IMG/VR virus record: IMGVR_UViG_2713896791_000023
DNA length: 6,184 bases
Strand: one strand, 5' to 3'
Origin: a virus
Lineage: Duplodnaviria > Heunggongvirae > Uroviricota > Caudoviricetes
Shown here in pieces: positions 4,520 to 5,162 of this stretch. The notes under the pieces were generated by a model. That model did no database searches and had not been told where the DNA came from. It worked only from the letters and a program-made list of their open reading frames with translations. Position 1 is the first letter of the stretch. Each line of letters starts with the position of its first letter. Both the position numbers and the translations under genes were made by a program.

Positions 4520-4717
4520 TCAATACACAAAATCTGTTTTAAATTCATGGTTACATTCTGGGCAGCATGTTTCGTAACCTTTTATTTCTTCACATGCCTG
4601 TTTTGCTCCAGAAAATTCCCAGAAATCAGCATCGCAAAGCAGATCGAAATTGTGGCCGCATTTTGGGCATTCAGTATCAAGTGATAAACTCCAGTAAGCA
4701 GGTGTGTTTTTGTCCAT
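4520..4717 (-). CDS. Small Cys-rich zinc-ribbon-like protein, 65 aa (MDKNTPAYWSL...ECPKCGH...CCPECNHEF...).
   Basis: ATG at 4717 with an AAGGAG RBS 6 nt upstream. It has CxxC ... CCxxC motifs. The ORF-track start at 4750 is upstream of the RBS and overlaps the preceding gene. Confidence 0.6.
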   Translation of the reverse strand: MDKNTPAYWSLSLDTECPKCGHNFDLLCDADFWEFSGAKQACEEIKGYETCCPECNHEFKTDFVY

Positions 4718-4718
4718 A

Positions 4719-5162
4719 TCACTCTCCTTTCCCCTGAAGCATAGCGGCACGGCAGGCGTTCCAGCCTCTCACCTCTGCAATAGCGGCAACAGCATNNNNN
4801 NNNNNNNNNNNNNNNNNNNNNNNNNNNNNNNNNNNNNNNNNNNNNACAGCATCAACCGCGTACATGCTAAGAGGATTAGGCATTGGTTTTTCTTCCGGTA
4901 CTACTGGAACGGGGGGAGCGGCGTAGACCTCAATAATTCCATTATCAATAGGCCATTCTCCATCCTTGAGGTAGTCACTTGTGCCGTCAACTTGCTGTTC
5001 TGCAATGTGGAATGCACCTATTGGTTCAGCTTCCAGCGCTGCCAGAGCAATCCGTGCCAGTTCTTCCGCTTCTTCTGCTGGCAGTACAACGTTGCTACCA
5101 GGTCCGTATGTTTCGCGCCACTGCTTGATTGTCAGCAGTCGCTCTTTGGTAATAGTGGTCAT
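4719..5162 (-). CDS. Hypothetical phage protein 'B', about 147 aa, paralog of 'A'; interrupted by the 50-N gap.
   Basis: ATG at 5162 overlaps the upstream stop (ATGA), with a GAGGA RBS. It shares the N-terminal domain with 'A'. The reading frame is preserved across the N-run if the run is exactly 50 nt. Confidence 0.65.
   Translation of the reverse strand: MTTITKERLLTIKQWRETYGPGSNVVLPAEEAEELARIALAALEAEPIGAFHIAEQQVDGTSDYLKDGEWPIDNGIIEVYAAPPVPVVPEEKPMPNPLSMYAVDAXXXXXXXXXXXXXXXXXXAVAAIAEVRGWNACRAAMLQGKGE
4796..4845. other. Run of 50 N: unresolved or masked sequence.
   Basis: Read directly from the sequence. The 7-mer ACAGCAT sits immediately on both sides of the run (4789-4795 and 4846-4852). 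Confidence 0.99.

Follow-up and report, generated by a model that had tools for sequence, protein, structure and literature searches.

Two competing models account for the mosaicism of phage genomes: in that of Botstein, homologous exchange takes place at conserved linkers, and in that of Hendrix, segments are joined illegitimately at random and selection acts afterwards. In the modular theory that Susskind and Botstein reportedly put forward in 1978, and Botstein in 1980, linkers lie at the boundaries of modules. Two papers treat short conserved boundary sequences as places where homologous recombination occurs, both with reference to Clark et al. 2001, who reportedly found support for the linker model in phage HK620 (PMC2327257, PMC3029335), and Botstein linkers have been discussed along with an analogue in phage T4, the promoter early stem-loop (PeSL) element (Arbiol et al. 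2010; PMC2839356). Critics of the linker model usually object that most boundaries lack an identifiable linker (PMC3029335). Here we analyze a 17-nt sequence, CCATATCACTCTCCTTT on the plus strand, that occurs twice in IMG/VR virus record IMGVR_UViG_2713896791_000023, a stretch of 6,184 nucleotides (the window) representing the left end of a lambdoid, Shiga toxin (Stx)-phage-like E. coli prophage integrated at wrbA. Both copies lie in the non-essential 'ea'/accessory part of the leftward early operon, each between the end of an upstream gene and a small Cys-rich open reading frame (ORF), A1 or A2, with a B-type gene (B1 or B2) behind the latter (Table 1). We consider it likely that the 17-mer is a translational-coupling junction that also serves as a short conserved boundary, or linker, for module exchange by homologous recombination.

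Cassettes reassort exactly at a 17-nt stop/start junction

Within the window, the 17-mer has exactly two exact matches, and a search permitting up to three mismatches found no further ones; two matches were reached in 0 of 200 dinucleotide-preserving shuffles (shuffle mean 0.01), in keeping with the initial annotation, which had pointed to an exact 17-mer at two gene junctions. All genes around both junctions are encoded on the minus strand, on which the 17-mer is AAAGGAGAGTGATATGG, parsed as AAA GGA GAG TGA T ATG G. Its parts are, in this order, a Shine-Dalgarno (SD) sequence within the codons for the final three residues (KGE) of the upstream product, the stop codon of the upstream gene, a single base, and the start of the small Cys-rich ORF. 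In both copies the SD sequence AAGGAG, a complement of the 16S 3' end, terminates 6 nt 5' of the ATG, within the 5-9 nt before the start that mark a coupling junction, and the upstream TGA lies 1 nt 5' of the ATG (TGA-T-ATG), which is likewise the stop-near-start arrangement of such junctions. The 1-nt gap recurs at both copies, with the same genes called, in phage phi315 as annotated in GenBank and in E. coli FWSEC0003 as annotated in RefSeq. Thus, the ribosome-binding site, upstream stop and ATG of a Cys-rich ORF that had initially been assigned to each copy are all in place; at copy 2, the upstream stop is the TGA (frame ..TKGE) and not a TAA that likewise overlaps the motif.

The window holds two runs of 50 N (4796-4845 and 5476-5525), which comparison with phi315 and FWSEC0003 identifies as scaffold gaps rather than length-preserving masks. 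In FWSEC0003 (E. coli O45:H2, 100% identical), the first gap conceals no sequence, with 7 nt, ATGCTGT, doubled on its two sides, and the second stands for 38 nt. As the first gap lies between the two copies, it inflates their distance to 651 nt in the window, and the real distance in this complete genome is 594 nt. ORFs read across the gaps have wrong lengths or frames in the window and are therefore unreliable. The full arrangement was found at 100% identity in four complete E. coli genomes (O45:H2, O111:H8 and two untyped), so that it is not an assembly artefact.

Across phages, the same 17-mer joins many different genes. An exact-match scan of IMG/VR returned at least 120 contigs carrying it, and its copies in the matches listed lie, save for two or three evident chance matches, at ..KGE stop/ATG junctions of enterobacterial phage sequence; the upstream ORFs in the contexts listed all end in ..KGE. 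Clustering of the flanks (70 nt, 70% identity) in the 120 contexts listed separated at least 29 upstream and at least 21 downstream clusters, which occur in at least 61 combinations. A stricter single-linkage clustering at the protein level left at least 8 upstream and at least 16 downstream families in at least 27 combinations among the matches listed, the dominant upstream family being a mosaic Ead/Ea22-like group with variable C-terminal domains that all end in ..KGE.

The edges of the 17-mer are also where sequence similarity breaks off. Contig pairs with at least 97% identity over 200 nt upstream and less than 45% downstream numbered 212, and the reverse was seen in 897 pairs (155 non-identical contexts); per-base identity in such one-sided pairs drops from 100% to about random directly after ..ATGG. 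Similarity of the window to 265 related loci ends at 4730 (n=30), 4714 (n=10), 5381-5387 (n=34) and 5362-5364 (n=8). Both searches that the initial annotation had proposed thus gave a positive answer: related phage contigs carry the 17-mer at a stop/start junction in essentially every case, between many different gene pairs, and mosaic breakpoints coincide with its edges. The features by which a linker is recognized, namely a position at the module boundary, non-homologous flanking modules and breakpoints coincident with reassortment, are found together here, and these genome comparisons show that cassettes reassort exactly at the 17-mer.

Many contigs contain arrays in which two to three linker copies, 196-1123 nt apart, surround one or two genes. 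In the window, the two direct copies bracket the A1 + B1 cassette, and A1 was also found with a linker on both sides. The expected product of recombination between the two copies of the window, with the upstream gene joined directly to A2, is present in one contig, and hybrid forms ending in ..NHLRIKGE occur in two further contigs. Three exact 17-mers follow one another in four IMG/VR contigs, at distances of 196 and 648 nt. A 64-aa gene (MATNNRKAKILLVRR..) is all that the first interval contains; it is the short form of the gene 5' of window copy 2, so that this window gene is itself a linker-flanked cassette.

Proposed mechanism and alternative explanations

In the mechanism that we propose, the 17-mer would be the standard link between genes in the leftward early operon of temperate phages of enterobacteria, with a strong SD sequence placed in the K-G-E codons of the upstream gene. 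Ribosomes that end translation of the upstream ORF would restart at the next small ORF, whichever genes have been joined, by termination-reinitiation or efficient de novo initiation, and the cost to the upstream protein would be a three-residue KGE tail only. Folding predicted no structure that would sequester the SD sequence (z about 0), so that strict dependence of downstream on upstream translation is not indicated. Since the same sequence stands between many unrelated genes, it would act as a short conserved linker, and since crossovers within it would give in-frame, correctly expressed recombinants, one- or two-gene cassettes could be reassorted at this point. RecA and the Rad52-like annealing proteins of the phage itself are candidates for the recombinase, and exchange partners might be co-resident prophages, infecting phages or P1-like phage-plasmids; in the near-identical phage phi315, the same operon runs on into exonuclease, RecT-like and Gam genes, that is, a recombination module. 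A bare linker of 17-21 bp would be a poor but usable substrate and the extended forms of 30-40 bp a good one. A minimal efficient pairing segment (MEPS) of 23-27 bp has been published for Red-beta and one of 31-34 bp for RecA, and Rad52-like phage recombinases favour short or diverged homologies (PMC3945230); RecET-dependent joins at 5-13 bp are put at ~1e-8 in a passage cited in PMC2327257. The initial annotation had suggested a coupling cassette or a recombination boundary, and this is supported by the anatomy of the junction, its many gene partners and the breakpoints at its edges, from which we infer that translation is actually coupled at the 17-mer and that the exchanges occur by homologous recombination within it.

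Several points weigh against this reading. With 17-21 bp, the minimal linker stays below the MEPS (PMC3945230), so that exchange at it should be rare, and only the extended 30-40 bp forms reach the threshold. Of the 17 positions, 13 (SD, stop, start) are functionally constrained, and those that vary, 8-9, are free of such constraint; selection rather than recombination could therefore have preserved, or even produced, some of the identity. Our main contig set was gathered by the exact 17-mer, which biases the ranking by context diversity, and single-linkage clustering puts most upstream genes into the one mosaic Ead/Ea22-like family, so that upstream diversity is lower than the 29 clusters suggest.

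The main rival, which we nevertheless regard as unlikely, is functional convergence: illegitimate joining at gene ends would be followed by selection for an optimal SD/stop/start, driving junctions independently to the 17-mer, with no role in exchange. Convergence would explain why the constant positions are exactly those of SD, stop and start, with 8-9 left to vary. It would also be in line with the resemblance of AAGGAG-A-GTGAT (AAGGAG-A-GUGAU as RNA) to the full anti-SD complement, which, according to the established sequence of the 16S 3' end, is AAGGAGGTGATC as DNA and AAGGAGGUGAUC as RNA. The default assumption in the field, that most mosaic joints lack conserved sequences, points the same way (PMC3029335). 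A sample independent of the motif, with loci gathered by homology to A1 (best 80 loci) or A2 (64 loci in viral contigs), bears on this question. The pattern AAAGGAG-NN-stop-ATG precedes A1 in all of the best 80 loci, with the stop 1 nt from the ATG in 78, and these junctions, which comprise the exact 17-mer in 60 cases and AAAGGAGACTGATATGG in 12, involve at least 8 different upstream genes. Most of the 64 A2 loci have the linker, or a variant that differs by 1 nt, in front of A2; the exact sequence was counted 23 times, the GAC variant 22 times and variants with small indels ~10 times, and the junction is unrelated in 6 homologues that are divergent. Junction variation is almost confined to positions 8-9 in the A1 homologues, and the A2 homologues behave alike. 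On the other side, positions 8, 9, 13 and 17, which are non-functional, are identical in 60 of the best 80 A1 junctions, and identity often continues for 12-22 nt further upstream, with the same synonymous codons in unrelated proteins; moreover, the KGE residues are imposed on upstream proteins that are unrelated. Junctions in the same operon also follow other designs, such as ATGA overlaps (5159-5162 and 3931-3934), a TAATG (5721-5725) and a 10-nt spacer (4510-4519), so that the arrangement in the 17-mer is not forced.

Pairs of junctions that differ on both sides have mostly 17-21 identical bases in common, with a tail to ~40 bases that is due to the extended form, GCCGCTGGCATTCGCATC + 17-mer (encoding ..AAGIRIKGE at the protein end). 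Unrelated bodies of upstream proteins carry the same codons GGC ATT CGC ATC AAA GGA GAG TGA, and such sharing of codons speaks for identity by descent. One could argue instead that the C-terminal ..(GIRI)KGE tail has a function of its own as a peptide, be it in binding a partner or as a stability tag, and that identity of the DNA is secondary; indeed, KGE terminates all upstream ORFs, as part of AAGIRIKGE in many of them. However, the codons are identical rather than synonymous-variable, the last residue changes freely in variants (KGD, KGA, KGG), and identity runs beyond the stop into the ATG G of the next gene, which leaves a protein signal highly improbable.

Ordinary paralogy would make the 17-mer the best-kept remnant of a tandem duplication of a two-gene unit consisting of a small Cys-rich ORF and a B gene. 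B1 and B2 are paralogues, the N-terminus of B1 being paralogous to B2, and a second repeat at the A/B junctions (37 nt, 84% identical) is found at near-equal spacing, 653 versus 651 nt. A TGA inside the TTGAGG of this repeat is the in-frame stop for A2 and is out of frame in A1, which runs on to the ATGA overlap; similarity of many phages to the window stops at the repeat (5162, 5138-5179 and 4486-4490). The flanks of the 17-mer speak against duplication. When 200 nt around each copy were aligned, no DNA similarity past the 17-mer was detected, BLASTP gave no similarity between A1 and A2, and the proteins encoded 5' of the two copies had only the 17-mer-encoded tail in common in BLASTP. Longer homology between duplicated genes had been named beforehand as the finding that would deprive the 17-mer of its status as a discrete element; as flanks and flanking proteins are unrelated, the 17-mer is not a remnant of such homology, and the similarity into both flanks that a tandem duplication should leave is absent. 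In addition, the same 17-mer joins many other gene pairs elsewhere in phages, and the end of B2 is devoid of a linker. The duplication reading was therefore rejected, and we accord it very little probability.

Cassette arrays with identical short sites look integron-like, and one cassette encodes an HNH endonuclease. This might be taken to mean that the 17-mer is the target of a dedicated site-specific or cassette-mobilising recombinase, integron-attC-like or homing-like. Yet the 17-mer is not palindromic, the RNA or DNA around it has no more stable fold than shuffled sequence (z about 0), a conserved recombinase is not associated with it, and the translation signals fully explain the site. 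Its upstream homology shoulder is variable, as expected of general recombination, and we consider a dedicated recombinase most unlikely. As to other elements, folding of the 91-nt contexts against shuffles indicated no stable structure at either junction (z about 0), scans for promoters and terminators revealed no such site at either copy, and the whole window gave no Rfam match at the gathering threshold; a structured RNA, a terminator and a PeSL-like element were ruled out on these grounds.

Returning to exchange at the linker, a bolder extension by analogy would view the early-left accessory region, together with its counterpart in P1-like phage-plasmids, as an integron-like but recombinase-independent cassette array with the 17-nt linker as docking site. 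Linker-bracketed cassettes would loop out as circles and re-insert at any linker of co-resident phages, always in frame and expressed. Although we find this quite improbable, it would, if true, mean that the linker has evolved as a device for evolvability and is not just a side effect of signals for translation.

Distribution and genetic neighborhood

The linker is widely spread. Its extended 35-nt form occurs in 165 named phage records, comprising Stx1- and Stx2-converting and other Escherichia, Salmonella and Shigella phages. In HK620, the hkaG/hkaF junction is AAAGGAGAGTGAGATGG, which follows the pattern AAAGGAGAGTGA(T/G)ATGG and has 16 of 17 bases equal to the linker. Phage lambda (J02459, 29844-29874) retains a relic of the junction, AAAGGAGAGTGAGATC, at the end of ea22 (..DAGIRIKGE); the relic is devoid of a start codon, and no gene is annotated in the ~190 nt behind it. 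In the P1-like phage P7, an exact 17-mer separates upf88.3 (Ead-like) from upf89.0, and behind it lies the same 171-aa cassette (MALTHRELCQIAYKFLK..) as in lambdoid contigs. Parts of window positions 4400-5800 match 1,860 of 5,426 complete E. coli genomes, at up to 9 places per genome, as against the whole arrangement in four, which illustrates how freely the pieces recombine. Pieces of this region were found at 466 places on plasmids, and the plasmids among the matches listed are 90-99 kb long, about the size of P7 and SJ46 (P1-like). A scan of 596 Gb of genome contigs, for which ~70 chance matches are expected, gave matches in unrelated taxa among those listed and hence says nothing on host range.

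A sister junction is located at the end of the Ead/Ea22-like gene. Its first 25 nt are the extended linker form of other phages, the gene end carries AAAGGAGGTGAGTAATG, including a 10-nt perfect anti-SD complement, AAGGAGGTGA, and breakpoints fall at 5726 and 5748-5758. Similarity blocks were also seen to end at the A/B junction and at the Ea22 tail (5738-5755). We surveyed the context diversity of k-mers, which is biased toward the 17-mer by the way the loci were collected and was used together with the breakpoint map. The second most context-diverse element is a coding motif of DUF551, 'PDGWISCSERMP' (~3688-3722, minus strand, at the start of the domain), with similarity ending at 3716-3724; to judge from these ends, it looks like an intragenic point of domain shuffling. 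A 32-nt motif common to B1 and B2 (..IALAALEAEPI..; 5020-5051 and 4367-4398, 84% identical) has 88 similarity ends at 5016-5032, and phi315 is identical to the window as far as the ALEAEP motif inside B1 and unrelated beyond. On this survey and map, the 17-mer is the clearest of several linkers in the region.

Behind the excisionase gene, the order is DUF4222, DUF1627-like, DUF551 genes, B2, A2, B1, A1, the small upstream gene and the Ead/Ea22-like gene (Table 1). Scans against Pfam and PHROG assigned almost no functions to cassette genes, the HNH endonuclease of one cassette being the sole one. B1 and one DUF551 gene are marked as partial pseudogenes by RefSeq/PGAP ('missing C-/N-terminus'; FWSEC0003 stretch 1772-1906 and 259-522), which is probably due not to decay but to the mosaic make-up of these genes and their truncation in comparison with longer members of the families. 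Within the DUF1627-like gene, (VQP)n is encoded by 5-6 tandem copies of a 9-bp unit, GCTGCACTG, at 3019-3090.

Table 1. Features of the window, by position (SD, Shine-Dalgarno sequence; two dots before residues, preceding sequence omitted).
Feature	Position	Strand	Remarks
wrbA	1-579		
Integrase	576-1910		
DUF1233 excisionase	1939-2238		
DUF1627-like gene	2885-3274		
DUF551 gene	3458-3934	-	
B2	3931..4509	-	192-aa paralogue of B1; common N-terminus incl. ALEAEP motif; phrog_660
3' boundary of A2 cassette	4490..4526	-	Partner of 5143-5179; leader and start of B2
A2	4520..4717	-	65-aa Cys-rich ORF 3' of copy 1; CPxC...CPxC (CPKC...CPEC), zinc-ribbon-like; phrog_4173
Linker copy 1	4714..4730	-	SD AAGGAG 4729-4724; TGA of B1 4721-4719; ATG of A2 4717-4715
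B1	4719..5162	-	5' of copy 1; ends in ..AAMLQGKGE; true length 128 aa; gap 4796-4845 interrupts window copy
3' boundary of A1 cassette	5143..5179	-	37 nt, 84% identical to 4490-4526; leader and start of B-type gene (MTT.TKE..)
A1	5159..5368	-	69-aa Cys-rich ORF 3' of copy 2; phrog_926
Linker copy 2	5365..5381	-	Same 17-mer; TGA of upstream gene 5372-5370; ATG of A1 5368-5366
Gene 5' of copy 2	5370..5712	-	Ends in ..NHLRTKGE; 109 aa in phi315, 62 aa in RefSeq; gap 5476-5525 interrupts window copy
Sister junction	5721..5755	-	End of Ead/Ea22-like gene; GCCGCTGGCATTCGCATCAAAGGAGGTGAGTAATG; ..AAGIRIKGGE; TAATG stop/start overlap
Ead/Ea22-like gene	5723 to beyond 6184		

Comparison with known systems

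Ordinary coupled stop/start junctions of bacterial and phage operons, at which termination leads to reinitiation, are similar to the 17-mer in layout: the upstream ORF contains an SD sequence at its end, its stop and the next start are no more than a few nt apart, and densely arranged genes share one strand. They are specific to a gene pair, whereas the 17-mer is the same over many unrelated gene pairs and genomes. With integron attC arrays, the 17-mer arrays have in common promoterless single-gene cassettes, a recurring short site and expression from an upstream promoter. However, attC has an imperfect palindrome, a folded bottom strand and an integrase; the 17-mer has neither imperfect inverted repeats that could form a hairpin nor a dedicated integrase, and its shoulders are variable.

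PeSL elements of the T4 type (PMC2839356) resemble the 17-mer as repeated expression signals between non-essential small ORFs, in a hyperplastic region, that offer homology for shuffling. In both systems, the cassettes between direct repeats could leave the genome as circles, and mini-circles have been shown in T4. A PeSL is an early promoter plus stem-loop terminator of ~50 bp and concerns transcription, while the 17-mer is a translational SD/stop/start signal of 17 nt that is partly coding; neither copy in the window contains a sigma-70 early promoter with a stem-loop terminator.

The closest likeness is to the lambdoid linkers, which are short boundary sequences with unrelated flanks and mosaic breakpoints, HK620 itself being included through its hkaG/hkaF junction. 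Our literature search, which covered papers other than the text of Clark et al. 2001, yielded only general statements and no paper naming the 17-mer junction, and the 17-mer may already be among the sequences listed for HK620 by these authors. It is a tangible linker that occurs often and is resolved to the base, it illustrates clearly the linker route that has long been proposed for mosaic genomes, and it is spread over Stx-converting, lambda-, P22/HK620- and P1-like phages and over prophages of pathogenic E. coli with many co-resident lambdoid elements. Such a linker would explain the free reshuffling of small accessory genes in Stx prophages and may provide a defined substrate for gauging the shortest homology used by phage recombinases in nature. 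The 17-mer is thus one of the short conserved boundary sequences already known as a class from lambdoid phages and represents no new kind of system; what is added here is the scale of reassortment (at least 120 contigs and at least 61 flank combinations), the sharpness of the breakpoints at base level, the multi-copy arrays, the tie of the linker to an SD/stop/start signal and its reach into P1-like phages.

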